Shown in pieces: positions 2,764-52,118 of a stretch of 64,000 bases of DNA. Both the position numbers and the translations under genes were made by a program. This stretch comes from an uncultured Methanosarcinales archaeon (GTDB taxonomy: Archaea > Nanobdellota > Nanobdellia > Woesearchaeales > GW2011-AR9). Every line of letters begins with the position of its first letter. The first letter of the stretch is position 1. Under the pieces are notes generated by a model. It was not told the DNA's origin. It saw only the letters and a list, made by a program, of their open reading frames with translations, and searched no databases. The DNA is taken from assembly GCA_964344235.1 (NCBI GenBank), contig CAYFMJ010000003.1, positions 1 through 64,000 of the forward strand, written 5' to 3'.

Positions 2764-3417
2764 CTAACCAAAGAGATTTCCAACTTTTTCTTTCAATTCG
2801 TCGTCCATCTCAGCAATACTCTTCGTTCCGTATAAATCCATGGTCGTTTTGAAGGATAAGTGCCCCAAAACACGTTGCACTACCTCTAAACTGAGGCCTT
2901 TGTCTTTCAGTATCCTTGCACAAGAATGACGTAAAATGTGGGGGTTAATGTTCTTTAATTCAGGAATTGGATTTTGTAATTGTGCTCTTTGTCCTGCTTT
3001 CGCAACGATCCTATTGATTTGCGTTGGAGTAATGTGGCCGTTTTCATTTAATGTAGAAACAGCAGGAAATAAGTAGCCTTTTGAAGGGTTGTTTAATACG
3101 TATTGGATATACAGCTTAAGATCTTCCACTAATTGGTCGGAGAAGATGGTCGCTAGACGATAGATGTTCTTCTTCCCATGAATTTGAATTTTGTTCGTTG
3201 TTAAATCAATATCTTCGATTTTGATTTTTGCTAATTCAAATCTCCTCAACCCACAATAAGCAAATAATTTGATGATGATTTTGTCACGCAATTTTTCGGT
3301 GTGTTTGATAAGAAGTTTGATTTGATCTTCCGAAAGGTGGAACTGACTGCGAGAATGGGCCTTTTTACTAATCGCCTCTTTCATTTCTCTAGAAAACGTA
3401 ACGAAATATTTAAACAT
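2764..3417 (-). CDS. tyrosine recombinase/integrase, short catalytic-domain form
   Basis: GLRRFE (R), HILRHS (HxxR), LGH and TTMDLYG (Tyr); alternative start ATG 3384; no clear N-terminal SAM-like domain. Confidence 0.9.
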   Translation of the reverse strand: MFKYFVTFSREMKEAISKKAHSRSQFHLSEDQIKLLIKHTEKLRDKIIIKLFAYCGLRRFELAKIKIEDIDLTTNKIQIHGKKNIYRLATIFSDQLVEDLKLYIQYVLNNPSKGYLFPAVSTLNENGHITPTQINRIVAKAGQRAQLQNPIPELKNINPHILRHSCARILKDKGLSLEVVQRVLGHLSFKTTMDLYGTKSIAEMDDELKEKVGNLFG

Positions 3418-3616: not shown

Positions 3617-4150
3617 ATGACAAAACAAGCACAACGAACAAGAATTTTCCCGGGAAACTTAGAACTTCCAGAAAGCCTTGTTGGGAAGATTCAGGAAGTT
3701 AAATTAATACGTCCAAAGAAAGCGGATTTTGCTGCAGGGGCAGCTAATGTTGCTCTTGCCTGTGCCGTAACGCGTGTAGATGTGGCGACTTATGGAGACC
3801 CATCAGAATGTGTCAAAATAACGGGGGAAAGTGGCTTTTACGCTGGAGAGACAATTGCGATTGCGACATATCTCTCGAGAACGCTTCAACCAGTTGATCG
3901 AGGATTGGGTTCTTTGTGGCTACGTGATGTTAATGCTTCTTTGCCTGAAGAGGAAAGAGGGGGTATACATTTTGGGGTTGAAGTAGAACTTTTTCCAGGA
4001 GAGTGGGAGCCTTCGTTTAGCTTGGTTCAGTTAGGTCTGCCTGGTGCACATACATTAACAGTTCGCTGTGCAAGATTTGGCCGCTATAGGAATCCTCTGG
4101 AGAATTTTGTTGGAGCGATTGATGAACAATATAACCTAGGAAAACATTAA
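3617..4150 (+). CDS. hypothetical protein
   Basis: 177-aa ORF with TATA box upstream. Confidence 0.7.
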   Translation: MTKQAQRTRIFPGNLELPESLVGKIQEVKLIRPKKADFAAGAANVALACAVTRVDVATYGDPSECVKITGESGFYAGETIAIATYLSRTLQPVDRGLGSLWLRDVNASLPEEERGGIHFGVEVELFPGEWEPSFSLVQLGLPGAHTLTVRCARFGRYRNPLENFVGAIDEQYNLGKH

Positions 4151-4300
4151 TATTTTGGGGCCCATTATTTTTAATAATTTATCATTAATTTTATTATAAC
4201 TAACTAAATTTCCAGACAAATGACAATAGGTTTTAGAATTAATGTTCCTACTCTCCAATAGTTCTGCATCTTTAAAAACTTAGAAGAGAATTTAAGATTT

Positions 4301-6016
4301 ATGCCAACAGCACCGTGGGATCTATCTGCAGTTAAACCCAAAAGTATTGATGGAGAGTTGAAGTCTATTGCAGCTCTTGCTAAGAAGATTGAGAAGAAGC
4401 GAAGAATGTTAACAAACTCTATTTCTACGAGGACATTCATAGCTATCGTGAAAGAGTTAGAGAATTTGCGGAAGAAGTCATCTAAATTAGGGGTGTATGT
4501 TCATTTGCGGTTCTGTGAGAATTCTAAGGATCAAAAAGCGACGGCCGACATGACAAAAGTAGAAACAGCGTTAGCGAAGATTAGTAACACGTTGTTGTTC
4601 TTTTCATTATGGTTTAAACAATTACCGGAGAAGAAGGCAAAGGAACTCATTAAAGCGAGCGGTAAGTACAAGTATCATTTTGAATTATTAAGAAAGAATA
4701 AAAAATATACATTACAGGAAAATGAGGAGAAAATTATCAATATTAAAGATACAACTGGTGTTTCTGCAATAACTAATGTCTATAATATTCTCACAGCAGG
4801 GTTTGAGTATGAGTTCCAGGGTAAGAAGAGAACACAGGAAGAAATGGTGACGTATGTCCGAAGTTCTTCTGCAAAAGTTAGAGAAGCAGCATATAGGGAA
4901 CTCTTCAGACCGTATAAAGCGAATAAAGCTGTTATAGGAGAGATTTACAAAAACATCATTAATGATTGGCGAGAAGAAAACGTTGGCCTACGAGGTCATA
5001 AAAGCCCAATTTCTGTACGGAATAATGTGAATGATATTCCAGATAAAGCAATTGATGTTTTGTTAAAAGTGTGTGAGAAGAATCAGAAATTATTTCATAG
5101 ATTTTTTGAAATTAAACGAAAGAGATTAGGATTGAAGAGATTACGGCGGTTTGATGTGTATGCTCCATTAAAGGAGGAGAAAGGAACCATTTCGTATGAT
5201 ACAGCAGTTTCTATGGTGTTAGAAACATTTGCTGATTTCTCTTCGGAGTTTCATGATGCTACAAAGACGATTTTAGAGAAGAAACATGTCCATAGTAAAG
5301 TGCAGAAAGGTAAACGTTCAGGTGCGTTTTGTTGTTCATCTACGTGTGAGATTGAACCGTTTGTGTTGTTAAGTTATACAGGGAAGTATAGGGACGTTTC
5401 AACACTTGCACACGAATTAGGACATGGTGTGCATGATATGCTTGCTTCAAAACAGACAGAGTTTACATCACAAGCATGTTTACCTCTTGCTGAGACAGCT
5501 TCTATTTTCTCAGAGATGTTATTATCAGAGAGAATGTTAAGGATTAATCCTGCAGCGGCAAAGAATATGATGTTTACGAAGTTAGATGATTTGTATGCTT
5601 CTATCATTCGGCAAGCTGGCTTTGTAGCATTTGAGAGAAAAGCACACGATATGATGCGGGATGGGAAGACAATCGATGAGATGAGTGCTGTGTATTTGAA
5701 AGATTTGAAGAAACAGTTAGGACCTGTTGTTGTTGATGAAATCTATCAGTATGAATGGGCGTATATTCCCCACATTTTCCATACGCCGTTTTATTGCTAT
5801 GCGTATGCATTTGGCAATTTGTTGACACTTGCTATTTATGAAATGTATAAAGAGAAAGGTGCATCGTTTGTTCCTAAAGTGATTGAGATGTTATCTGCGG
5901 GTGGTTCAATGGAGCCAGTAAAGATTGCAAAGATTGTTGGTGCGGATATTACATCTGAGAAGTTTTGGCAGAAAGGATTTGATGTTATTAAAAACATGAT
6001 AGATCAGATTGAGTGA
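4301..6016 (+). CDS. pepF: oligoendopeptidase F (M3B)
   Basis: TLAHELGHG (HExxH), AETASIFSEM, HIFHTPFYCYAYAFG. Confidence 0.92.
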   Translation: MPTAPWDLSAVKPKSIDGELKSIAALAKKIEKKRRMLTNSISTRTFIAIVKELENLRKKSSKLGVYVHLRFCENSKDQKATADMTKVETALAKISNTLLFFSLWFKQLPEKKAKELIKASGKYKYHFELLRKNKKYTLQENEEKIINIKDTTGVSAITNVYNILTAGFEYEFQGKKRTQEEMVTYVRSSSAKVREAAYRELFRPYKANKAVIGEIYKNIINDWREENVGLRGHKSPISVRNNVNDIPDKAIDVLLKVCEKNQKLFHRFFEIKRKRLGLKRLRRFDVYAPLKEEKGTISYDTAVSMVLETFADFSSEFHDATKTILEKKHVHSKVQKGKRSGAFCCSSTCEIEPFVLLSYTGKYRDVSTLAHELGHGVHDMLASKQTEFTSQACLPLAETASIFSEMLLSERMLRINPAAAKNMMFTKLDDLYASIIRQAGFVAFERKAHDMMRDGKTIDEMSAVYLKDLKKQLGPVVVDEIYQYEWAYIPHIFHTPFYCYAYAFGNLLTLAIYEMYKEKGASFVPKVIEMLSAGGSMEPVKIAKIVGADITSEKFWQKGFDVIKNMIDQIE

Positions 6017-17694: not shown

Positions 17695-18888
17695 CTAAAA
17701 AGCTGTGAGTTTTGTTTGATGTTTTCTTTCTTTCATTAATTTACTCTGTTGTAGGAAGACGGAGATGTCAACGCCGAATTTTCGTTTGGCGAATTGTTTT
17801 GCGTAATGTAGCATTAGTTCTTCAGAAGCAAAGTTGATGGGGTGGGATTGCACACTTTTTCTGGCTGATTCTCGACAAACCCATACTCCTAACGGGAGAT
17901 TATACTGAGAGGTGATAAAGCGGAGGGCTAAACAGCTATGCTGCCGTTTGAGTTTCTTCATTTGTTCGAGGATTGGGAGACGTGCAGCGTAATAACCACC
18001 TGCAGTCTCGTCAGCGTATTTTTTTCTTCCTTTATAGTTCTCATAATCGGTTGAGTAGGAGAAGCCCTGTTTGCTCCAGGGATTACTTTTGAGGTAGAGG
18101 TATGTTTCAAATAATTCATAACTCCAGACTTCTGGGAAGAAGAGGAATAAGTAGTAATTCCCCCAACCACCACCAAAATACGCTTGATACTCTCCCGTAG
18201 GGAAGTCTTTAATTTCTTTGATTAGTTGTTTACCAATCGTATCATCAGTAGCGGTAATAGACCATCTGGTGGGAACGAGTTTTCTATTGTTTTTTAATCC
18301 TAAATTGCCAACCGAGAGTAGTTTGTGGAGAGTGTTTTCTTCAAAGCCCTTTTTGTAAAGGTTGAGGATTCCTAGGTTTGCTTTCAAATCTGTATCGTAG
18401 ACGACTTTCTCTACTCTTGTATCTGTTTTGATGTTTTCTGTTACTCTAGCTTTCTGCACTTCACTCGCAGGACCGTACGGAATGATTTCTTTTTCTTGCT
18501 TTGTGGAAAGTTTCGGTGCTTTTTTTAGGGAGACTTCCAAGTCAGCAGCTTTCTTAGCCATGCCAACTTCCTGGACGATATCTAAGAATTTTCCACCCTT
18601 TTGTAATTGTTTGACAGACCATTTAGTTCTACTGTTCACTAAGCTGTATCTCTTACTAGCGATAGAACCAATAGAGGCGTTATTTTGACTCCATAATCGG
18701 GGAGAATCATATTCTTGCATTTCTCCGATAAATTGTGGGGAAAGAACACCAATGTTTACGTGAGGGTAGCCATATCTACCAATGAATGGGGCAGGGGCTG
18801 AGCCTTGGAATTGTTGTTTGAAATGTGTGTTAACTTTTAATTGAGGAATTTGTTCAATATCTTTGAATTTGACACGGTGAATGTTCAT
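17695..18888 (-). CDS. nreA: Nre-family DNA repair protein
   Basis: FIGRYGYPHVNIG, LVPTRWSITATD, AGGYYAAR, C-terminal PIP-like QTKLTAF; no N-terminal Cys cluster. Confidence 0.88.
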   Translation of the reverse strand: MNIHRVKFKDIEQIPQLKVNTHFKQQFQGSAPAPFIGRYGYPHVNIGVLSPQFIGEMQEYDSPRLWSQNNASIGSIASKRYSLVNSRTKWSVKQLQKGGKFLDIVQEVGMAKKAADLEVSLKKAPKLSTKQEKEIIPYGPASEVQKARVTENIKTDTRVEKVVYDTDLKANLGILNLYKKGFEENTLHKLLSVGNLGLKNNRKLVPTRWSITATDDTIGKQLIKEIKDFPTGEYQAYFGGGWGNYYLFLFFPEVWSYELFETYLYLKSNPWSKQGFSYSTDYENYKGRKKYADETAGGYYAARLPILEQMKKLKRQHSCLALRFITSQYNLPLGVWVCRESARKSVQSHPINFASEELMLHYAKQFAKRKFGVDISVFLQQSKLMKERKHQTKLTAF

Positions 18889-19700
18889 AATTTATCATAG
18901 GGACTTTGGATGTTTAATAATTTCGGTGCTGCTAAATGAGTATAGATTAACGTAGTTTCTAAATTTTTATGGCCTAAAAGTGGTTGAACGTCAGTCACAG
19001 CATAGCCGTTTTCGATTAAGTGAGTAGCAAAAGAGTGACGCAACATGTGTGGATGAACGTGTTTACTTATTTCGGCTTTCTTTTGTGCTTTACTGAGAAT
19101 TCTCCGCACTGAGGAAGTCGTCATATGACTTTTATGTCCCCGGAATAGCCAATCGTCATTTGTTAATTTATGTTCTTTAATCCATTGAGTGATTTCTTCT
19201 TTCAATTTCTCTGCAATAATAAAAATTCTATCTTTCCCTCCTTTACCGTTTCTCACCCAACCATAATTGCTGTCAAAGTGAAAGTGTTTAACTTTGAGGT
19301 GAACTAGTTCAGATACTCTCAATCCAGCTGAGTACATAAGGGTTATCATTAGCTTATGTTTTCTATTGTTGATGACTTTTAATAGTGATCGTACTTCATC
19401 TTGCTGTAAAAATCCTGGCAGAGATCTTCGTTGTTTTGCCATTGGAATGTTAATTGTTAGCCTCTTATGCAAAACTTTTTCATACAGAAATTTGAGTGCA
19501 CCTAAATGAACGTTCTGAGTGTTACCTGACTTGTGATATATACGCCGTAGGTGTTTCTCAATGTCTTTCTTTGTGACACTGTGGACATCTTTCTTGTATG
19601 TTCTCAGAAATTTTTGAATAACGCATATATATGTTTTAATCGTTCTTGGAGAATAATTCCTTTTCAGTCCTTCTTTTCTAATTAACTCAGCAACATTCAT
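18885..19700 (-). CDS. XerA/XerD-like tyrosine recombinase
   Basis: N-terminal NYSPRTIKTY, GLRVSE, GKGGKDR, HPHMLRHSFATHL, LGHKNLETTLIYTH, C-terminal SPYD. Confidence 0.93.
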   Translation of the reverse strand: MNVAELIRKEGLKRNYSPRTIKTYICVIQKFLRTYKKDVHSVTKKDIEKHLRRIYHKSGNTQNVHLGALKFLYEKVLHKRLTINIPMAKQRRSLPGFLQQDEVRSLLKVINNRKHKLMITLMYSAGLRVSELVHLKVKHFHFDSNYGWVRNGKGGKDRIFIIAEKLKEEITQWIKEHKLTNDDWLFRGHKSHMTTSSVRRILSKAQKKAEISKHVHPHMLRHSFATHLIENGYAVTDVQPLLGHKNLETTLIYTHLAAPKLLNIQSPYDKL

Positions 19701-19740
19701 ATTACTTTGGGGATTTGTTAATTTAAATATTCTATCCGTA

Positions 19741-19794
19741 GTTGTCCAGTGGGGAGTGGCTACAAAGTGGGACAGAACTATAGAGAGTAGTAAC
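19741..19794. repeat. recombinase-proximal motif, copy 1
   Basis: 38 of 43 aligned bases match 52062-52104 after an 11-bp gap. Confidence 0.8.
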
Positions 19795-19924
19795 AGTTTT
19801 TTGCGTTATGGGATTGAGTAGAGGCTTTGAATTCAAAGAATTTCACTAAGTGCAATAAAATTCTCATTAAAACGGAAACTACGTTGGGGTGCTCTTTGGA
19901 TGTAAACTCTCTTCTTTAACTTGA

Positions 19925-19984
19925 TAAAAACTAACGAAAATTCCACTTTAAACTCAATGTAAAAAACTATATAGGCGGGAAGAT
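19925..19984. repeat. att-like site L
   Basis: TAAAAACTAAC, AAAATTCCACTT, AATGTAAAAAACTA and AGGCGGGAAGA, each with a counterpart at 22952-22997. Confidence 0.7.
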
Positions 19985-20719
19985 TTAAGGCTTCGCCATT
20001 CTCCACAAAAAATCAAAATAAATTCTAAAACCATCTGCGATATTTCTATTCTTAATGATAAAAGCATAGGGTGTTTCCTCCCATAACAAAATAAATACAT
20101 ACTCTTGAAAAATATCTATTGCTGCTGGACTCCTAAACCCTTTCTCCATAAATCTAATTTGCCCCCACTTTTCTCTCTTTCTTTGTTCAAAAAACTTATT
20201 CTTTCTATTATCCAAAATCATTCTAAACTTATGCTTCTTTTGCTTTGATACTTTATTTACATCCCTCAGCAAAGCTGCTAATTTCTCATTTTTGTAAGCT
20301 TGATTTGAGAAACCAATAATATCTAATGTTTCACCAACAGGACATTCCTCAACTAACCTATACAATGCAGACTTGAAACCTTGAAATCCCTCAAAAACGG
20401 CAGTTTCAGTTTCTTTCTTCTCTTTCAATTGAAGCGTTTTCAAATAGGGAATAGCTTCTTCAATTTTTTTCATTCGTTCTTTCATCACTTCACTGATGAC
20501 ATCAGGATCAAGAGCAGAATAAAGTTTTCCTTTTTGCCGTTTTTCATAAGTAATAATTCCTTTCTGTACTAAAGTATCAAGAGCAGCATAAACTCGTGAA
20601 TTTGCAATTCCAGTCTTCCGTCTAACCTCGGTTCCAGTACATTTACCTAATTTCAATATCAGGACATAAATCTTAATCTCGTTATCAGTTAGCCCTAATA
20701 ATTTTAGTTTTTCTTCCAT
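19985..20719 (-). CDS. TrmB-family transcriptional regulator
   Basis: LGLTDNEIKIY N-terminal HTH, SRVYAALDTLVQKG. Confidence 0.85.
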   Translation of the reverse strand: MEEKLKLLGLTDNEIKIYVLILKLGKCTGTEVRRKTGIANSRVYAALDTLVQKGIITYEKRQKGKLYSALDPDVISEVMKERMKKIEEAIPYLKTLQLKEKKETETAVFEGFQGFKSALYRLVEECPVGETLDIIGFSNQAYKNEKLAALLRDVNKVSKQKKHKFRMILDNRKNKFFEQRKREKWGQIRFMEKGFRSPAAIDIFQEYVFILLWEETPYAFIIKNRNIADGFRIYFDFLWRMAKP

Positions 20720-20777
20720 ATACTCCTAAATAGGAGAACTTATATTTAAATATTTCTGTCACAACTTAATAGTAGAT

Positions 20778-21497
20778 ATGTCAAAAACTAACCCTTTTAA
20801 TGAAATAGAACATGAAAGAACCAATCTTAACCTAGACAAACAATTCAGCATTTTACCTACTGTAATTCATTTACTCCGCCCATTGTCTGGAAAAAGAGTT
20901 ATTGATGTTGGTTGTGGAGATGGCTTTTTTACTTTGCCAATTGCAGATCAATCACCAACACATGTTTATGGCATTGACAATTGTGTTAGACAAATTGAAA
21001 AAGCGGAGAAAGAACCACATCCCAGAGTATCCTACTCTGTTACAGATATGTTTGATGAATTACCTCCAGCTGAGAGAGTAAATGCTCCATTTGTCTTGAA
21101 TTACACTGAAACTACACGAGAACTGAGATTATTACTAAGAAATTTCTACCAAAGTCTAACAAAAGATGGAAAGTTAGTTGCCGTTGTTGATCTCCCTAAA
21201 CCAAATTTTAACTCACAACAAAGAGAAAGAAAAAGACAATTGAGTGTAGTTAAAACATTAGCGGGAGAACTTCAAGATGAAACTGGAATAAAACTAGATT
21301 TCTATAACGGCAACGGAATTATGTTTAGCTTGTCAGCCACATATTACACGCCTCAAACAATCACTGGTGTTTTGTCTGATGTTGGCTTTACGAGAATACA
21401 ATGGCACCAACCACTAATAGAGGAAAACTCTCCTCTTAGTTCTTGGCAAGATTATCAAGAGTTATGCGAATTAGGATATATTACAGCTGAAAAATGA
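20778..21497 (+). CDS. class I SAM-dependent methyltransferase
   Basis: VIDVGCGDG motif I, GID. Confidence 0.85.
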   Translation: MSKTNPFNEIEHERTNLNLDKQFSILPTVIHLLRPLSGKRVIDVGCGDGFFTLPIADQSPTHVYGIDNCVRQIEKAEKEPHPRVSYSVTDMFDELPPAERVNAPFVLNYTETTRELRLLLRNFYQSLTKDGKLVAVVDLPKPNFNSQQRERKRQLSVVKTLAGELQDETGIKLDFYNGNGIMFSLSATYYTPQTITGVLSDVGFTRIQWHQPLIEENSPLSSWQDYQELCELGYITAEK

Positions 21498-22165
21498 TGG
21501 AAATAATAGTTTGGACAATTGGAACCTTATTAATCTTAACAATTAGTGCCTCTCTAGCAAAAAGATTTGGCTCAGTGTTCATCATTGGTTTATTTTCAGC
21601 TTTGTATGTAACTGCTAATATTCTTGCTAATAAAATTTTACAAATTGGACCTTATAGTGTTCCTGCTGGAATCATTGCATTTTCTTTAACTTTCTATCTA
21701 ACTGATCTTTTGTCAGAAATTTATGGAAAGAAAACTGCTTTGAAAGCTGTATGGATTGGCTTTTTCTCTCAAATAGTTCTCGTGTTCTCAATTTGGGTTG
21801 CAATCCAATGGCCTTCTGCACCATTTTGGCAAAATCAAGAAGCATTTGTTTCTGTTTTATCAAACACTTGGAGAATAGTGGGGGCTTCATTATTAACATA
21901 TATTGTAAGTCAAAATCACGATGTGTGGGCTTATGATTTCTGGAGAAAAGTTACAAATGGAAAACATTTATGGATAAGAAATAATGCTTCAACAATTGTA
22001 AGTCAAGCAATAGATACTTTTCTATTTACAACACTGGCATTTTATGGAGTATTTGAAATCCCAGCATTAATATCAATGATGATAGGTACTTTTATCATTA
22101 AGATGTTAATCGCAGTATTGGATACACCTTTCTTGTATATAATGAAGAGATATTTTAAGAAATAA
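21494..22165 (+). CDS. queuosine/7-deazaguanine precursor transporter (YhhQ/VUT family)
   Basis: ANILANK, TDLLSEIYG, SQNHDV, WIRNNASTIVSQAIDT. Confidence 0.88.
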   Translation: MMEIIVWTIGTLLILTISASLAKRFGSVFIIGLFSALYVTANILANKILQIGPYSVPAGIIAFSLTFYLTDLLSEIYGKKTALKAVWIGFFSQIVLVFSIWVAIQWPSAPFWQNQEAFVSVLSNTWRIVGASLLTYIVSQNHDVWAYDFWRKVTNGKHLWIRNNASTIVSQAIDTFLFTTLAFYGVFEIPALISMMIGTFIIKMLIAVLDTPFLYIMKRYFKK

Positions 22166-22166
22166 A

Positions 22167-22535
22167 CTAAGCACTAGCAGAAGCAACTAACGGACTTTGA
22201 AAATCAGCTTGAGCAAAAGCAGGCAATTTTTCTATAATCTTTTGGTTTCCGTGTTCAAAAGATAATGAAATAATCCAATAGTTGCGATAATTAGTAAACT
22301 GTAATTCTGCTTCTTGTAATCCAGAAAGCATTTCTTTACTGATATTCTCATTCAAAGTATGCAAAAATTTGTAGGCATCTAGTAACTCTACATTAGCAAT
22401 TCTTCTATCTTTATCTAAATCAATTACTAATTCTTCAGTTACTTCTACGCTTTCAGAAACGGAAGCGTCCTCTCTATAAATAGTTAAGACATCTCCTTCT
22501 TTATCATACGAGACCTTAAATTTTTGACTAATCAT
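22167..22535 (-). CDS. DUF2283-domain protein
   Basis: YDKEGDVLTI, LVIDLDKD, VELLDA. Confidence 0.8.
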   Translation of the reverse strand: MISQKFKVSYDKEGDVLTIYREDASVSESVEVTEELVIDLDKDRRIANVELLDAYKFLHTLNENISKEMLSGLQEAELQFTNYRNYWIISLSFEHGNQKIIEKLPAFAQADFQSPLVASASA

Positions 22536-22556
22536 ATTTACTTGAAATCCCCGCTA

Positions 22557-22904
22557 CTATTTAAACCTTTTTCTGTATCTTTTCAAAGTCGTTCTGCCTA
22601 GTGGAAATACAGTGATAATCTTGATTTGTTTGTCAAATTTGAGTACATAACGTCTGCCTCTATTATTTGAATATACAAAATAACATCTAAATCTCTCCTC
22701 CTTTTCGCCCCCATGCTCTATTTGCTGTTTCTCAGTAAATGTGAGATCTTTCGGATTTAAGACCTCTTCTTTCATTTTGTCAACAGTTGTATTATTCCTT
22801 TTGCACAACCAATCAAGAATACGAGATTTAGTAAAAAAGATTTGGTCTTTTGAATATTTCTTAACTTTCTCTTTGACAACATCAGATTTATCTCTTTTAG
22901 CCAT
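22557..22904 (-). CDS. putative toxin (RelE/DUF4258-like)
   Basis: basic protein ending IKIITVFP, directly upstream of DUF2283. Confidence 0.5.
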   Translation of the reverse strand: MAKRDKSDVVKEKVKKYSKDQIFFTKSRILDWLCKRNNTTVDKMKEEVLNPKDLTFTEKQQIEHGGEKEERFRCYFVYSNNRGRRYVLKFDKQIKIITVFPLGRTTLKRYRKRFK

Positions 22905-22951
22905 TATCTACAACAATTCAAACAGTAATATAAAAACATTCCTAAGAATTT

Positions 22952-22997
22952 TCTTCCCGCCTTTTCTAGAATGTAAAAACTAACTAAGTGGAATTTT
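22952..22997. repeat. att-like site R
   Basis: TCTTCCCGCCT, AATGTAAAAACTAAC, AAGTGGAATTTT. Confidence 0.7.
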
Positions 22998-23048
22998 TTC
23001 TTATGTAAGCTAAGATAGTTCAATGCTACACTGTGACGTGCTGGAAAA

Positions 23049-23101
23049 ACTTGCTCCGCTAACGCTACGCACCCCTACATAAAGTAGGGGGCACATAACC
23101 T
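23049..23101. repeat. 53-bp direct repeat, copy A
   Basis: identical to 24094-24146; contains CCCCTAC-ATAAA-GTAGGGG hairpin. Confidence 0.95.
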
Positions 23102-23166
23102 CTTATGTGCAATAAGCCTACGACGAGCAGTAGAAGTAAAACTTCTTCTTTAATAAAAATGTAATT

Positions 23167-23180
23167 GGGTGTCCGTTTCT
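23167..23180. repeat. 14-bp inverted repeat, left
   Basis: GGGTGTCCGTTTCT, reverse complement of 24025-24038. Confidence 0.85.
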
Positions 23181-23185
23181 AAGAA

Positions 23186-23962
23186 CTATTCTACAACATA
23201 ATGATAGAAAACTTTTGGTCCTTCTCTTAAATGTTCCTCAAAATGTTTATTCAATTCTTTAAGAGAATCTCCACAAGCTCTTAAAAAAAGAGGATCTTTT
23301 ACTTGAACATGTAACACAAATTTTCCAGATGGAACACTTTTATATCTAGAAGAGAAAAAATCTAAATCCACTATTTGCTTTCTATTCTTTTCTACCCTTT
23401 CTGTTTTCCAGAATAAAAATCGTCCTTCATGTCTTGTTTCGTGAATATGATAAATTCTTACATATCCATCACCATCAATAGCATCGTATCCTCTTTTATA
23501 AGTATCTAAATCAAATTTATCAGTCGGTAATGAAGACCTAACAGAATCAATTAAAACATTACCATAAGTTTTAATGATTGCACCAAAACTAGGGATAGCT
23601 CCATGATCATATATATCGGCAAATTGTTGTTCAACTGTTGGATATCTTAAAGCGATTGCTCTTTCCATATAATCAGCAGAAATCCCTAAGCTCTGAGCAA
23701 CTTCATAAGCAACAGAAACTGGAAAATTTCCTTCATGAACAAGTGTTCCTTCAACCGCATCAAGAACTGCTTTATCTCCTTTTCTTTCATCAAACTGCCT
23801 TAAAGAATCAGCAAGTGCAATTAAATCTAAAAATTCTTTTTCAGGAAGATTTCTTTCTGATGGAGATAAAACTAATCTTTGATCTAGTGAATCTGTTCTT
23901 ACTAAACTTGTTTCTTCATCTGAAGTCATTGTTAATTGAGCACCTTCTTGACTTTGCAACAT
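23186..23962 (-). CDS. hypothetical protein
   Basis: 258-aa ORF bracketed by direct and inverted repeats. Confidence 0.7.
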   Translation of the reverse strand: MLQSQEGAQLTMTSDEETSLVRTDSLDQRLVLSPSERNLPEKEFLDLIALADSLRQFDERKGDKAVLDAVEGTLVHEGNFPVSVAYEVAQSLGISADYMERAIALRYPTVEQQFADIYDHGAIPSFGAIIKTYGNVLIDSVRSSLPTDKFDLDTYKRGYDAIDGDGYVRIYHIHETRHEGRFLFWKTERVEKNRKQIVDLDFFSSRYKSVPSGKFVLHVQVKDPLFLRACGDSLKELNKHFEEHLREGPKVFYHYVVE

Positions 23963-24024
23963 ATATTCTTGAGAATCTAGTTCATTTAAAAAGTTTTCTG
24001 CCTGTAACTACTAAACAATAAATA

Positions 24025-24038
24025 AGAAACGGACACCC
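24025..24038. repeat. 14-bp inverted repeat, right
   Basis: AGAAACGGACACCC. Confidence 0.85.
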
Positions 24039-24093
24039 CTTATTGCTTGCGCTTTAATTTTTAACTTGATGTAACTTGGCTCGTCTCCAGCTT

Positions 24094-24180
24094 ACTTGCT
24101 CCGCTAACGCTACGCACCCCTACATAAAGTAGGGGGCACATAACCTTTCGGACATGGACATGAAGTCCATGCCACATAAC
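24094..24180. repeat. 53-bp direct repeat copy B (24094-24146) plus a second 36-bp hairpin unit
   Basis: exact match to copy A, then CATGGAC-ATGAA-GTCCATG-CCACATAAC. Confidence 0.9.
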
Positions 24181-24213
24181 ACCAAAATTCAATAGAATAA
24201 GTGTGGAGGAAAA

Positions 24214-25356
24214 TTATTCTGGAGGGACTATCCCCTCAAGAGGAGGCTCTCCTTTGGGTACACAAACAAGATATGTACACCCGGTTACTTCATAATCTAC
24301 TTCTTTTCTTGGCTCAACGTCATCTCCTTGGGCTAAGCAACTTTCCTCTTTAAGACTTAGTTCCTCCTCGGAGGGACATTCGCTACACCTAATTTGCCCA
24401 CATGGCCAATCCTGTCCCTCAAACCACTCAGAGTATTTGTATGCTAAAAAGTTCTCTCCCTTAGCTTGACAGTCGATCGTAGCTTTCTCTAAAAGAGGTT
24501 CAGGAGTACATTGGCTTATTTCTCCGCCAGCACAATAAACCGTCTCACATCCATTAGCATCGGGTAATGAGAATGGTTTCAGGTCACCACAATCTTGCTT
24601 CATTTCAGCTAGTGCTTCATCAGTAAAGCATCCATTCTTTCCTAACTTCGTTAAGTCTCCTTTCTTAGGAAGGATTGTAATCGGCGCTGCACAAATATCA
24701 TTGTCATCTTTATCTGCAACTATCACAAAATATACGGTTTTAGTGGTGACGTCACCCCAATCACAACTGGTGTCACTAATCTTTAAACTTGCTGGAACTG
24801 CTGTTTTATAGGGGTGGTCTGAACTCTTTCCATAACGTTCAAATTGATCGCAAGAAATGCTAACTTTTTCGTATTTTAATGTTTCATCTGTAAATGTAAT
24901 ATCAACTTTTACATTTTCATTCCCTTTTGCTTCTTCCTTGGCTAAATCTATTGTACATTTCGGATTTTTTACTGTAATATCGGCAAGTGCCATCTCTGCT
25001 GCCCGCTCTTCAACAACTTCAATCTGCTCCTCAATAGCTTCTTCTTTAATCTCTTCTACAGTTTTAGGTGGAGTAATAGATTCTGTTTCCATTTGCTTAT
25101 CCGGTTCAACTACTTCTGCATCAATTATTGGTGGGCCACCCTCACCTTCTCCTCCAATCGAACTCACTTCATCACTGCTCTGGTCATAAGAATTTTCAGC
25201 AGACTTTTCGGAACCAGTAAACAACTCAATAAAAAAACTTTTCACTTTACAGAAAAAGCCACATTCTTCATCAGAACTAGATGTCGCTTCCGCGTGAACC
25301 ATAAGTGTACTTACCATCAAAACTAATATACACACAACAACCAACCTCTTTTTCAT
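24214..25356 (-). CDS. secreted Cys-rich acidic protein
   Basis: N-terminal signal peptide, many paired Cys. Confidence 0.75.
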   Translation of the reverse strand: MKKRLVVVCILVLMVSTLMVHAEATSSSDEECGFFCKVKSFFIELFTGSEKSAENSYDQSSDEVSSIGGEGEGGPPIIDAEVVEPDKQMETESITPPKTVEEIKEEAIEEQIEVVEERAAEMALADITVKNPKCTIDLAKEEAKGNENVKVDITFTDETLKYEKVSISCDQFERYGKSSDHPYKTAVPASLKISDTSCDWGDVTTKTVYFVIVADKDDNDICAAPITILPKKGDLTKLGKNGCFTDEALAEMKQDCGDLKPFSLPDANGCETVYCAGGEISQCTPEPLLEKATIDCQAKGENFLAYKYSEWFEGQDWPCGQIRCSECPSEEELSLKEESCLAQGDDVEPRKEVDYEVTGCTYLVCVPKGEPPLEGIVPPE

Positions 25357-25435
25357 ACAATTAGTAAACTATTTTTAATATATAAATATTCTCCTTTCTA
25401 TTTTTACCACACTACAGAACTTTCTATGTGGAATA

Positions 25436-47854: not shown

Positions 47855-49015
47855 ATGGAGCGGGGTGAACTAACGCAGAAGTATTTCTTTGAAGTGTATG
47901 GTGAAGATAGTAGAATCCCTATACGGTTCCACCATGGTCTAGACTCGGTTGTTTGGCATCCAGGAGATTATGAGGGAACTGAGGATGACAGACACAACCC
48001 CTGGAGTGATATTTATGAAGCGACGAATTTTGACGAGTTTGTGCACCTTGTGGTAGGTTCTTGGAATTTGCGTTCAGCATCAAGCATGACTGCGGTTCAT
48101 ACTCCAGACCAAGTAACTAATATGGGACCATTTGCAGAATTGTTGCATAGTGAACCAGACTTAACTGATGTTGTAGCATACATTCTCAGGCATACCCCTG
48201 AGCCTTATGGTGTTAGGCAAAAAGCCACGGAGGCAGGAAAGAAACTGAATCCCTACAGGCCAGATACATTGATAGAGCGTTTAACGGAGGTTGATGAGCA
48301 TGCCGCAGAATTATTTATTGAGGCGCTAAAGCGGCCAACACCAGACTATTTTGAAGCAGATGACAGGGCGATCTTTGATCCGCATTACAGAGAATGTGGG
48401 AGGATGTATGTTCCAGACAGAGATGGTGCTCACTTGGACATGATGTTTGGAAAGAGGGCCATCAGAACAGTGAAAGGGTTCCCACGTGACTTGTCAGTTG
48501 ATTATGTTGAATTACCTTCTATTGCAGTGAAGAATCAAACAGGTTTTCGAGACACAGTGTTCCGTGTAGTAACCAAATTCCCTGGCCAATATACCATTCA
48601 AGTTCGGTTTCGAGAGACAAGTCATAAAGGAGGCACACACTATGGGGAGGGAAGAATTGAGCTGCTTTATGAGGAGAGAGTAAGCCCCCTTGTAAATCTA
48701 CCCATGCGTGGCATGGCTCTTGATGATGACGAAGCGATCAGTGACCAAATGCAAGATACTGCCGGTTATTTTTTAAGAGAGCTAGAAAAAGATGCGAGAA
48801 TTATAGTAAACGATGTGAGCTGCAAAACTACTGACAATGGAGCTATTGCTACTTTTGAAGTTAGAAAAAGAAGTGATGAGAAAGCCCAGGCAGAAACATA
48901 CCCTTCTGCAGCACAATGCCGAAGAGATTTAGTTGAAGAAGCAACAGGATATTTCCCTGGATTAAAAGATCGACCAGATGTGGCACTTGCTGCGCTAAAT
49001 GGGGAGCCATTATAA
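47855..49015 (+). CDS. hypothetical protein
   Basis: 386-aa ORF. Confidence 0.7.
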   Translation: MERGELTQKYFFEVYGEDSRIPIRFHHGLDSVVWHPGDYEGTEDDRHNPWSDIYEATNFDEFVHLVVGSWNLRSASSMTAVHTPDQVTNMGPFAELLHSEPDLTDVVAYILRHTPEPYGVRQKATEAGKKLNPYRPDTLIERLTEVDEHAAELFIEALKRPTPDYFEADDRAIFDPHYRECGRMYVPDRDGAHLDMMFGKRAIRTVKGFPRDLSVDYVELPSIAVKNQTGFRDTVFRVVTKFPGQYTIQVRFRETSHKGGTHYGEGRIELLYEERVSPLVNLPMRGMALDDDEAISDQMQDTAGYFLRELEKDARIIVNDVSCKTTDNGAIATFEVRKRSDEKAQAETYPSAAQCRRDLVEEATGYFPGLKDRPDVALAALNGEPL

Positions 49016-51862
49016 TTGTTTTAATGTAAGTTCTTTTATTTCATCCGGCCAGTCTTCGATAAATTCTCTATATTGTTTTAATTCCGTTTTCACTTTCTGT
49101 TTCAGCGAACCAGTTTCGATAAGTTTAATGAGTGCTTCTTTGACATAGACAGGGACTTTCTTAAGATTCCAGACTTGTAATTTCATTTTTTCTTTCGCCA
49201 TGTCTTTCTGTTCATCCTGTTTCTTTTTTGTCTCTTCCCAGTATTGTTGGTAGGAAAATTCTTTTTCTTGCTTGATTTTCTTTTTTCCTTCTTTCAGATT
49301 TATCTTAGCTAAGACTTGCTGATGCATTCGTCGGAGGAATTCATGTTTGTCTTCGATTCTAATAACGTCGCTGTAACCAGAGGCGATTAAACCGAAAGCA
49401 AATGGAGAAGGCATCTCTGTTGAGGTTTGGACTATTTCAATCTGATTTTGATTGACTTTGTCAATAATCTCTTGTGCATGTTGGTAATCCATTAAGTCTT
49501 CAAGTACTTCTCTTCTCGCTTCTTTGAGAATAGGGAAGTGGTTATCGATTCTCTTGACTGCGTTGAATAAAATTTTACTGCCTATTTGCATCCTGCCTGT
49601 TTTCTTTTGTCGTCCCATATAGTTTCGGAGGATCATTAGTGATCTCGCAGCACAGTGTCTGAAGCGTCTCTTGAGAACTTCACTACGTTCGATGGCTTCT
49701 TCGAGTAGTTCTCTTAGGTTTTCTTCTTTGAGGAGGTTGAACGCCCTAGGCGCGTTAAATGGTTTTTCTGCCGCCAAGTAAAATGCGTTATCGGAAATAC
49801 CAACTTCAACATCGCGATGTTGGGAACGGCCAATGATGAATGCTAATGCTCGAGAGAGACAATCGTTAACTCTTCTGCCAAATAATGTATGGAAGATGAC
49901 ATAGGTTCTACCTCGGTCAACGTATGTTTCAATGACAATCTTTTTGTTTGAGGGAACGATGCTAAAGTTATATTGTTCATAGAAGTATTGATAGAGACTT
50001 TCTGCTGCTTTATTTCCGACATAGAGATATTCGTTAATGAATTCTTTAATTTGTTTCTTCGTGTGTTTATTTTTGAAGCGATCTTCCATCAAGTAACGGA
50101 AGCGGGAGATTTCTGTGGCGAGGTCAAAGGAGAGAGGTAGCATCTCTGAGAACCAGGAAGGGACAGTTGGTGGTCTGTTTACTGACGTGGAGACCTGCGC
50201 TGTCATACCTCGGGAGAATTTAAACATGTAGACATTTCCTCCCAGAACGAAAACGTCACCTGGTTTTAATCTTTCCAGAAAACCCTCATCAATCATTCCC
50301 ACAACTTGATCTTTGATCTTGACTTTCACATAGGATTCTTCAGGAATAGTTCCAATATTCGTCATGTAAATAATCCTCGCCATTTTTCCTCTTTTCCCGA
50401 TTTGACCGGTTTCTTCATCGTACCAAATTCTAGCGAAGACATATCGTTCCTCTAAGCTCACGTAATAGCCTGAGAGGTATTTGATCGTTTCAAAGAAGTC
50501 GTGCCATTCTAAGTTTTGATAGCAGTACGATTGTTTGACTAATTGGAAGAGTTCCTTGATGTGGATAATGTCGTTGATTGCTATGCCGTAAATATGTTGT
50601 GCTAAGACGTCTAATGCGTTTTCAGGGATGTGCACTCTGTCGATTTTCTTTTCTATTGCCGATTTTAGGAGGAGGGAACATTCTACTAAGTCATCTCGGT
50701 CCATGACGATGATTCGTGCTTTAACAGTGGAGTGTAATTGGTGGCCTGCTCGTCCAGCTCGTTGTAAGAATCGTGCAACTGATTTCGGTGAGCCTAAGCA
50801 GAGAACTAAATCAATGTATCCGATGTCTATACCAAGTTCTAAAGAAGTTGAGGAGACAACAACTTTAAGACTACCATCTCGTAAATCTTGTTCAGTTTTG
50901 AAACGGACTTCTTTACTTAATGAACCGTGATGTGCTGCTATATTATTATGGTTGTAATGTTGTGGGAACATTTCTTTGAGGTTGTGGACGACTCTTTCGG
51001 TAGCAGCTCTAGTGTTGGTGAAGACAACAGTTGTTTTATGTTTTTGAATTTGTTTGTCAATTAATTCATACATCTTTTTGTGTTTGAGCATGTAATCAAG
51101 ATCAACTAAACTTCTCACGGGTGAGAGAACTTTGAGATCCATGTCTTTGATAAATTGCACGTCAACAACGCCGCAGTTTCTATTTGCTCCTACTAAGTAC
51201 TGGGCAATTTTTTCTAGTGGTGCGATGGTAGCGGAGAGGCCTACTCTCGTTAATCCGGGTGAGACTCTTTGTAGCCGTTCCATTGTTAGCGAGAGGTGTG
51301 TGCCTCGTTTGTTTTCTGCTAGGGAGTGGATTTCATCTACTAAAAGCCATTGTGTGTCTTTGAGATGAAGTTTGAATTTAGGAGAGTTGATCATGATGGC
51401 TAATGATTCAGGTGTGGTGATGAGAATGTGTGGTGGTTTCTTGAGCATCTTTTGCTTTTGGTATGCTGTTGTATCACCCGTTCTGACACCTACACGGATG
51501 TTAAGTGGTTTGCCGTTAAGTTCTTCTAGTTCTTTGAGTGGTTTGAGAAGGTTTTGTTCAATGTCGTAGTTAAGTGCTTTTAATGGGGAAACGTAGACGC
51601 AGTAGACTTTGTCTTCTAACGCTAACTTCTTTGTTGAGTCAACAAGTTCGTTGAGGATTGCGAGGAAGGCTGTTAATGTTTTTCCTGAACCTGTTGGAGC
51701 GGAGATGAGGACGTTTTTTCTGTTATGGATTTCCATCACCCCGAAGAGTTGTGGTGGGGAGAAGGTTTTGAATTTGTTGAAGAACCATTTATTGATTAAT
51801 GGATGTAGAATAGACTTAAGATGGAGTTCTTTGTACGGTTCAGTTAAATGTGTGATGGACAT
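49010..51862 (-). CDS. lhr: Lhr-family ATP-dependent helicase
   Basis: APTGSGKT, DEIH, SSTSLELGID, QRAGRAGH; start moved to ATG 51862 because the upstream extension reads through a tRNA. Confidence 0.93.
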   Translation of the reverse strand: MSITHLTEPYKELHLKSILHPLINKWFFNKFKTFSPPQLFGVMEIHNRKNVLISAPTGSGKTLTAFLAILNELVDSTKKLALEDKVYCVYVSPLKALNYDIEQNLLKPLKELEELNGKPLNIRVGVRTGDTTAYQKQKMLKKPPHILITTPESLAIMINSPKFKLHLKDTQWLLVDEIHSLAENKRGTHLSLTMERLQRVSPGLTRVGLSATIAPLEKIAQYLVGANRNCGVVDVQFIKDMDLKVLSPVRSLVDLDYMLKHKKMYELIDKQIQKHKTTVVFTNTRAATERVVHNLKEMFPQHYNHNNIAAHHGSLSKEVRFKTEQDLRDGSLKVVVSSTSLELGIDIGYIDLVLCLGSPKSVARFLQRAGRAGHQLHSTVKARIIVMDRDDLVECSLLLKSAIEKKIDRVHIPENALDVLAQHIYGIAINDIIHIKELFQLVKQSYCYQNLEWHDFFETIKYLSGYYVSLEERYVFARIWYDEETGQIGKRGKMARIIYMTNIGTIPEESYVKVKIKDQVVGMIDEGFLERLKPGDVFVLGGNVYMFKFSRGMTAQVSTSVNRPPTVPSWFSEMLPLSFDLATEISRFRYLMEDRFKNKHTKKQIKEFINEYLYVGNKAAESLYQYFYEQYNFSIVPSNKKIVIETYVDRGRTYVIFHTLFGRRVNDCLSRALAFIIGRSQHRDVEVGISDNAFYLAAEKPFNAPRAFNLLKEENLRELLEEAIERSEVLKRRFRHCAARSLMILRNYMGRQKKTGRMQIGSKILFNAVKRIDNHFPILKEARREVLEDLMDYQHAQEIIDKVNQNQIEIVQTSTEMPSPFAFGLIASGYSDVIRIEDKHEFLRRMHQQVLAKINLKEGKKKIKQEKEFSYQQYWEETKKKQDEQKDMAKEKMKLQVWNLKKVPVYVKEALIKLIETGSLKQKVKTELKQYREFIEDWPDEIKELTLKQL

Positions 51863-51923
51863 GAGTAGAAAACATCTATCTCTTACTATTTTGTTGTGTT
51901 TTTTATAATGATTGTGTTTACAG

Positions 51924-52027
51924 CGGCAGGGACGGGATTTCCGTGGTTGGCAATTCGAACCCGTGTGACGTGGGAACGTCAACCGATTATCAATCGGTTG
52001 CTTTTGGCCTTTCTTGGCCACTTCTTT
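51924..52027 (-). tRNA. degenerate type-II (Ser-like) tRNA, anticodon GAT, 16-nt intron at 59/60 (51938-51953), 5' acceptor strand missing
   Basis: D arm GCCAAG..GGCC, anticodon stem ACCGA/TCGGT, 6-bp variable arm, T stem ACGGG/CCCGT, 3' CCCTGCC-G. Confidence 0.8.
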
Positions 52028-52061
52028 TTGTTGTGGAATTTGTTTATAAGAATTAGGGATG

Positions 52062-52118
52062 GTTGTCGAGTGGGGAGTGGGGCAGAATTATAGAAAGGAG
52101 TAACGAAAATTCAACCTT
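52062..52118. repeat. recombinase-proximal motif, copy 2
   Basis: matches 19741-19794 fused directly to 19936-19948. Confidence 0.8.

Follow-up and report, generated by a model that had tools for sequence, protein, structure and literature searches.

Layout of the locus

The subject of this analysis is a locus at positions 17695–24182 of a 64,000-nt window of archaeal DNA (GenBank assembly GCA_964344235.1, contig CAYFMJ010000003.1), where the gene of a XerA-like tyrosine recombinase stands beside accessory genes separated by repeated, structured sites. The locus is probably a short, complete, integron-like cassette array of Woesearchaeota-type DPANN archaea that is served by a specialised clade of XerA-like recombinases. 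The window comprises positions 1–64000 of a 95-kb contig (C3), through which the array is assembled, and belongs to a genome (G000) of 1.19 Mb in 37 contigs that is 96% complete and has a guanine-plus-cytosine (GC) content of ~39%. Its gene content is archaeal and includes Nre and TrmB genes. Low GC (0.31–0.35) is confined to ~20–24 kb of the window, with values of 0.37–0.41 on either side.

Read along the minus strand, to which all features belong unless stated, the locus consists of a remnant half-site, a 53-nt module, cassette B, a junction site, cassette A, a 63-nt block, a promoter, the recombinase gene, and an Nre gene. The Nre gene (17695–18888; Pfam Nre_N, 2.5e-70; Nre_C, 1.6e-28) encodes a protein of the NreA type, a DNA-repair factor. 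It overlaps the stop of the recombinase gene (18885–19700) by 4 nt, and because of this overlap the two genes probably form one operon. The recombinase promoter (19712–19751) contains a CACTGGACAAC box, ACGGATAGAA, and the TATA box TTTAAAT ~30 nt before the ATG. Upstream of it, the 63-nt recombinase-proximal block (19786–19848), with a 14-nt palindrome (CTTTGAATTCAAAG) and the pair CATAAC..GTTAC, is a candidate equivalent of the integron attI site. This block is 100% identical (blastn) to positions 381659–381721 of contig C1, at the end of a second array, and the identity ends exactly at the start of cassette A. The C1 array that is closed by this block holds a MazF/AbrB pair, a TrmB-like gene, and small open reading frames (ORFs). 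Alignment of the regions upstream of the recombinase genes revealed no attI-like core; only a CATAAC half-site and the promoter are held in common.

Cassette A (19850–23101) begins with a left (3′) flank (19850–19984) that bears inverted-repeat arms at 19939–19950 and 19965–19975. Its cargo (19985–22904; GC 0.31–0.35) consists of five genes on both strands, encoding a TrmB regulator (19985–20719), an S-adenosylmethionine (SAM) methyltransferase (20778–21497, plus strand), a Vut_1 transporter (21494–22165, plus strand), a DUF2283 protein (22167–22535), and a 115-aa orphan (22557–22904). An initial annotation made from the sequence had listed a regulator, a methyltransferase, a transporter, orphans, and a toxin–antitoxin pair. 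All of these are confirmed except the last, since the 115-aa partner of the DUF2283 protein has no family match. The right (5′) flank (22905–23048) carries arms at 22951–22961 and 22985–22996 that are complementary to 19965–19975 and 19939–19950, respectively.

Between the cassettes lies the B/A junction site (23049–23123), which combines a 53-nt module (23049–23101), a hairpin (23069–23092), and a core (23091–23110), and which scores 61.2 bits (E 2e-12) with R1, a covariance model of the sites. Cassette B (23102–24093; unit to 24146, 1045 bp) is bracketed by private inverted repeats and carries one orphan gene (23186–23962, 258 aa) with its own TATA-like promoter. It starts from a second 53-nt module (24094–24146; hairpin 24114–24137; R1 42.7 bits). 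The two modules form a perfect 53-nt direct repeat (0 expected by chance in a repeat search of the window) that encloses only the orphan gene. The distal remnant half-site (24147–24182) has a second GTTATGT and a different 9-bp hairpin (24150–24173) that fits the aligned hairpin family, without the tail or the consensus left arm. It may be left over from an earlier recombination or mark the original distal boundary. A full site follows it by 5 nt. On the distal limit, synteny is uninformative: the 380-aa gene and the thiamine pyrophosphate enzyme gene to the right of the array were not found in five relatives.

The 53-nt repeat is the main signal in the region and was absent from the motifs that the initial annotation described as shared among the long intergenic regions. 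Those motifs exist, with each start of the first placed one base off, but the sharing is only weakly above chance. GTGCAATAA has two copies in the window, at 19850 and 23107 (given as 19849 and 23106), and at least two matches arise in 13 of 100 shuffles. TTTAACTTGAT occurs in the window only at 19915 and 24060, as described, and two matches arise in 0 of 100 shuffles. The stretch GTAAA..CTTCTTTAA belongs to a 21-nt repeat family (D12) with 81% identity. When the two left regions are aligned locally, the score of 32 exceeds the 21.7 ± 4.2 of shuffles but is reached by 8 of 300; their motif sharing is thus weak yet real. These motifs are peripheral parts of the sites and lie within the cassette flanks. 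That units end in TAAC is borne out, as the identical block closes with ...CACATAAC-CT on the plus strand. Scans of the window for tRNAs and Rfam families gave no match, which rules out the repeats as tRNA-derived att sites or known RNAs.

The recombinase and its promoter

The recombinase (271 aa) contains domains PF13495 and PF00589 (2.5e-44). It scores 219.4 bits with the XerA model NF040815 (cut-off 220), and Pyrococcus abyssi XerA (PDB 4a8e) is matched at 7.8e-37. The translation shows the catalytic R, K, HxxR, H, and Y within GLRVSE, GKGGKDR, HMLRHS, LGHKN, and LIYTH. As the initial annotation stated, the IntI insertion, an additional domain around patch III, is lacking: matches to IntI (TIGR02249, PDB 2a3v) fall in two stretches that skip it, and the IntI model TIGR02249 gives 195 bits against a cut-off of 265. 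The genome has 11 PF00589 tyrosine recombinases, none of the IntI type. The only other Xer-like one, at C15:212–1063, is 52% identical and scores 240.3 bits with the XerA model. A second tyrosine recombinase within the window (2764–3417, minus strand, 217 aa), one of nine non-Xer PF00589 genes in the genome, is 28% identical to the Xer-like protein.

A tree of 53 Xer-like proteins (41 genomes) places the two Xer-like paralogues of G000 in a 20-member clade, here clade A, with support of 100/100. Other Xer clades of the same genomes branch separately. In most genomes of the family, clade A is accompanied by one or two further Xer clades; G040, a closed genome, has non-A Xer only, and G017 (4 contigs, 92% complete) and G000 have only clade-A Xer genes at E<=1e-30. 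No clade-specific insertion or extra domain was found in clade A.

The promoter pattern of the recombinase, CACTGGACAAC..TTTAAAT, is not private to this gene. In a genome-wide list of the box, it also precedes the C15 paralogue and genes for Hef, RadC, Lhr, an HRDC protein, a DUF4186 protein, and LAGLIDADG endonucleases, and 10 relatives have it conserved ahead of their clade-A genes. The genes that share the CACTNGACAAC box look like a DNA-repair regulon. Because the recombinase has its box in common with the genes for Hef, RadC, Lhr, and homing endonucleases, its expression probably depends on DNA damage or repair, a parallel to the SOS control of IntI. The Lhr-type helicase gene lies within the window (49010–52021, minus strand, 1003 aa), with its box at ~52054–52072.

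The junction sites

Sites were aligned from the two copies in the window and from copies retrieved with nhmmer on C1 (three), C9, C17, C19, C22, C26, and C34 and in five other genera. Each site has three parts, a near-palindromic dif-like core, a hairpin, and a conserved tail. The core is of the type ACATAAC-N3-GTTATGT, with the consensus ACATAAC-GAT-GTTATGT, and reads GCACATAA-cctc-TTATGTGC at the window's junction (plus strand, 23091–23110). Directly 3′ of GTTATGT is a hairpin of 9 bp that has a TTTAY loop and a single bulged (extrahelical) base; next comes a tail of the type GAGCGTTAGCG..AAGT. The sequence of the hairpin varies between copies, and its pairing is kept: 94.4% of cells pair, compared with 57.4% after shuffling and 45–50% with slid partners, and double-sided changes are found in 9 of 9 hairpin pairs. 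R1 finds eight sites in G000. An outer TCGCT/AGCGA stem around the hairpin, checked by eye, was dropped because it shows no covariation.

The AAC/GTT boxes of one site are direct, not inverted. Sites keep one orientation regardless of the direction of the cargo genes, and this uniformity combined with mixed gene orientation favours a role at the DNA level over one at the transcript level. A species-representative collection contains 16 stretches with the exact core-plus-loop pattern. Most of these stretches lie in metagenome-assembled genomes (MAGs) titled as Woesearchaeota, Pacearchaeota, or Nanoarchaeota, and seven lie in MAGs titled "uncultured Methanosarcinales."

Private inverted repeats at the cassette ends

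The two ends of a cassette are complementary to each other. In local alignment, the ends of cassette B score 40 against 18.2 ± 3.5, a value matched by 0 of 300 shuffles, and include perfect 14-nt arms (23167–23180 and 24025–24038, pair I13). The ends of cassette A score 43 against 24.9 ± 5.2, matched by 2 of 300 shuffles. Across 16 cassettes from five arrays, cognate ends have a mean score of 39.9 versus 22.7 ± 5.6 in 240 non-cognate pairs, and 11 of the 16 lie above the 95th percentile. Flanks across one site have a mean of 22.1, close to the background of 22.7, and thus show no complementarity. Since the flanks of one site are not complementary, the site as it stands in the array is no attC-like palindrome. 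Only joined cassette ends, or ends that pair and loop the gene out, would allow a long fold around the core.

Association with one Xer clade and variable cargo

Among relatives, 12 clade-A loci contain 20 sites detected by R1, and nine of these sites were outside its training set. All 20 are upstream of the recombinase gene and on the same strand. Across the 153 kb of 31 loci from other Xer clades, the model finds none. Many units on C1, C9, and C26 and in the five other genera are bounded by members of this site family that differ in hairpin sequence.

The recombinase gene is next to Nre also in G010, which has the nearest relative of the locus, and in G017, where four further upstream genes are kept as well. 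Despite this synteny of the left flank, the cargo of the window is shared with neither genome. Of 300 other genomes of the order, one (G036) has a homologue of the cassette B gene, with no site nearby. Vut_1 is patchy, with homologues in 3 of 24 genomes of the family and the best matches in other families; the homologue in G019 is located between sites.

Signs of movement at the cores

In G010, one cassette is present twice. The two copies (913 nt, 93.5% identical) are homologous from one core to the GTTA of the next, and their flanks are unrelated. The duplicate carries a 236-aa gene and occupies non-adjacent array positions (locus L040, contig C2 of G010, 128–1040 and 4085–4997). Identity between the two junctions of the window begins 2 nt before GTTA. 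The assembly graph of G000 has a fork exactly at a core, where C15 (1–55) and C19 (last 55 nt, reverse) share 55 nt ending ...CACTTAACA; one path leads on C15 to the paralogous Xer gene and the other on C19 to a cassette array. The fork reflects a half-site that is repeated or, alternatively, a core at which the population is heterogeneous. Among the contigs, none has matching ends as a circular molecule would, and only 55-mer graph overlaps were seen. In a metagenome scan for its close relatives, the recombinase had matches of 25–32% identity only, none at strain level.

Proposed mechanism and alternative explanations

From these sequence comparisons, we infer that recombination takes place at the array. 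The recombinase would bind the cores, with strand exchange at GTTA or next to it. Two directly repeated cores would recombine to release the intervening cassette as a circle, which a further core-by-core reaction would put back. Circularisation would bring the two private ends of the cassette together around the core, and an attC-like folded site would thus be whole only when the cassette is excised. Production of the enzyme would be coupled to DNA damage or repair through the shared promoter box. Folded single-stranded DNA takes part in the integration of CTX phage and may do so here too. The initial annotation had left the choice between a new cassette system with a non-IntI tyrosine recombinase and a decayed integron. 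The former is favoured, because there is a covarying site family associated with one Xer clade, the cargo is variable, a duplication runs from core to core, and neither canonical attC features nor IntI were found.

Several observations weigh against a dedicated cassette array. Besides two clade-A paralogues, the genome encodes nine other tyrosine recombinases, and no extra domain or insertion in the enzyme explains recognition of the hairpin. The link between enzyme and sites appears as an association among related genomes that are not independent. The proximal site of the window is atypical (CATAAC..10 nt..GTTAC), with no clean core to mark the insertion point, and the genes to the right of 24.2 kb are unconserved in five relatives, which leaves the distal limit drawn from sites and GC only. 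With 3.2 kb and five genes in both directions, cassette A is large for a cassette. The identical 53-nt modules could stem from duplication or gene conversion. Finally, no circle, empty site, or strain-level variant was seen, and the metagenome scan gave distant relatives only.

Alternatively, the enzyme could be a housekeeping XerA that resolves chromosome dimers at a dif site beside its gene, with the cassettes as hitch-hikers piled up at dif in the manner of integrative mobile elements exploiting Xer (IMEX) and no dedicated capture platform. The XerA-like score and lack of a special domain, the dif-like cores, the probable co-regulation with repair genes and coupling to Nre, and the two genomes (G017 and G000) that show only clade-A Xer genes fit this account. 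It is nevertheless unlikely, given that most genomes of the family combine clade A with other Xer clades and the closed G040 has non-A Xer only, that sites are found near clade A only, and that G000 has two clade-A copies as well as an array on C1 without an adjoining recombinase. The hairpin, the tail, and the private inverted repeats are also foreign to dif. The sites might instead be non-mobile intergenic structures, such as terminators, protein-binding elements, or small RNAs, that are enriched in accessory islands, the recombinase being a mere neighbour. Covariation of the hairpin suits RNA as well as folded DNA, and no recombination product was seen. However, the constant orientation whatever the gene direction, the same position and strand of 20 of 20 matches relative to one recombinase clade, the homology boundaries that fall exactly in cores, and the lack of an Rfam match make this explanation quite improbable.

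A decayed or orphan canonical integron, that is, a cluster of attC sites lacking integron-integrases (CALIN) whose attCs would depend on an IntI from elsewhere or from another cell, has a precedent. Archaeal integrons and CALINs have been published, including those of a few Woesearchaeales and Pacearchaeales MAGs with 2–5 attCs and no IntI (Ghaly et al., 2022; PMC9668308). An attC was taken here to have inverted R″ (RYYYAAC) and R′ (GTTRRRY) boxes, 50–150 nt apart and pairing within one site. Our own box-pair scan with folding found 0 such pairs in 18801–25400, in line with the earlier statement that no complete attC is present, and none at the sites on C22 and C17. With flanks of one site that are not complementary, direct AAC/GTT boxes, no IntI-type protein among the 11 PF00589 matches, and no occurrence of the core motif in the accessible part of the supplementary material of PMC9668308, a CALIN is highly improbable. 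So too, to a slightly greater degree, is a one-off event, with the 53-nt repeats as the attL and attR of one small integrated element or as the product of a local tandem duplication. The window does hold only two full sites, which are 100% identical, but the site family bounds many units on three further contigs and in five other genera, and no integrase is encoded in the 1045-bp unit. Least probable are miniature elements with hairpin ends of the IS200/IS605 type (palindrome-associated transposable elements, PATEs), mobilised by a Y1 HUH transposase. The sites do have subterminal hairpins in which one base is extrahelical, but they are linked to a tyrosine recombinase. The Y1 transposase PF01797 has no match in the 96%-complete G000, and control genomes match.

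Comparison with known systems and implications

Taken as a cassette array, the locus shares with integrons a tyrosine recombinase gene beside a one-directional array in which structured sites delimit small accessory units, a hairpin with an extrahelical base, a break of homology at GTT/AAC, variable and often orphan cargo, and a recombinase that is probably damage-regulated. It differs in its enzyme, which is XerA-like without the IntI domain, and in its sites, which have direct AAC boxes and a dif-like palindromic core, whereas integron boxes are inverted. Complementarity is found here between the two ends of a cassette, in integrons within one site. The cassettes have their own promoters and genes in both directions, while integron cassettes are mostly promoterless and co-oriented. 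The recombinase gene is downstream of the array on the same strand, whereas intI is divergent from attI and the array.

Xer-dependent systems provide further parallels. IMEX of the CTX, TLC, and GGI types, which use host XerC/D at dif, are likewise recombinase-less units stacked in tandem at Xer-type sites. They are phages or islands, whereas the units here are gene cassettes of 0.3–3 kb that have a conserved site module in common and inverted repeats specific to each cassette. Modules of the pdif kind are flanked by XerC/XerD sites of alternating orientation and are located on plasmids. The pdif modules of Acinetobacter plasmids (PMC9771954) resemble the present units as small accessory-gene modules bounded by Xer-type sites; the sites described here differ in having one orientation, a chromosomal position beside the enzyme gene, and a hairpin. 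The archaeal XerA/dif system, known from P. abyssi XerA (PDB 4a8e; PMC3646895), resembles the present one in protein family and architecture and has a core of two inverted (C/T)ATAA-type arms with a short spacer. Here, by contrast, many sites occur as direct repeats with added hairpin and tail and bound accessory genes, and the enzyme belongs to a clade of its own, alongside which most relatives have other Xer paralogues.

No account of Xer-linked cassette arrays in archaea emerged from a search of the literature; the attCs published for Woesearchaeales and Pacearchaeales MAGs are possibly the same sites. To our knowledge, no dedicated cassette-capture systems are well described apart from integrons, whose definition is based on IntI and attC. 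It is tentatively proposed that the locus represents an independent gene-capture platform that combines an Xer-derived recombinase in a repair regulon, promoter-bearing cassettes, and an attC-like fold split between the cassette ends. If so, this would explain the apparent lack of an integron integrase in DPANN cassette arrays, and a second system drawn from a family of chromosome-resolution enzymes would mean that cassette platforms evolved more than once. Ultra-small archaea depend on gene exchange, and such a platform would offer a mechanism for the flux of accessory genes in DPANN genomes. It would also provide a new compact pair of recombinase and site for study, for which the short assembled array supplies both ends, the enzyme, the promoter, and a 1045-bp single-gene cassette as defined substrates.

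Other sites and promoter copies in the genome

A second site subtype, with the core TAATCGCTGTTAwrt and its own covarying hairpin before the core, is present on C17, C19, C22, C26, and C34. It shares arrays with the subtype of the window, and both occur on C26. An attC-type scan of the array contig C19 also returned an 88-nt near-perfect palindrome at ~2343–2430 (~-43 kcal/mol) with AAC/GTT ends.

Judged by its copies, the repair-type promoter is itself a repeated module. The 44-aa ORF that follows the C1 array was considered as a remnant of a recombinase gene and ruled out. Its promoter block is a near-copy of one on C8. This 69-nt promoter/leader block lies at C8:1906–1975 and C1:381737–381806, is identical at 68 of 69 positions, and precedes different ORFs of 42–44 aa.

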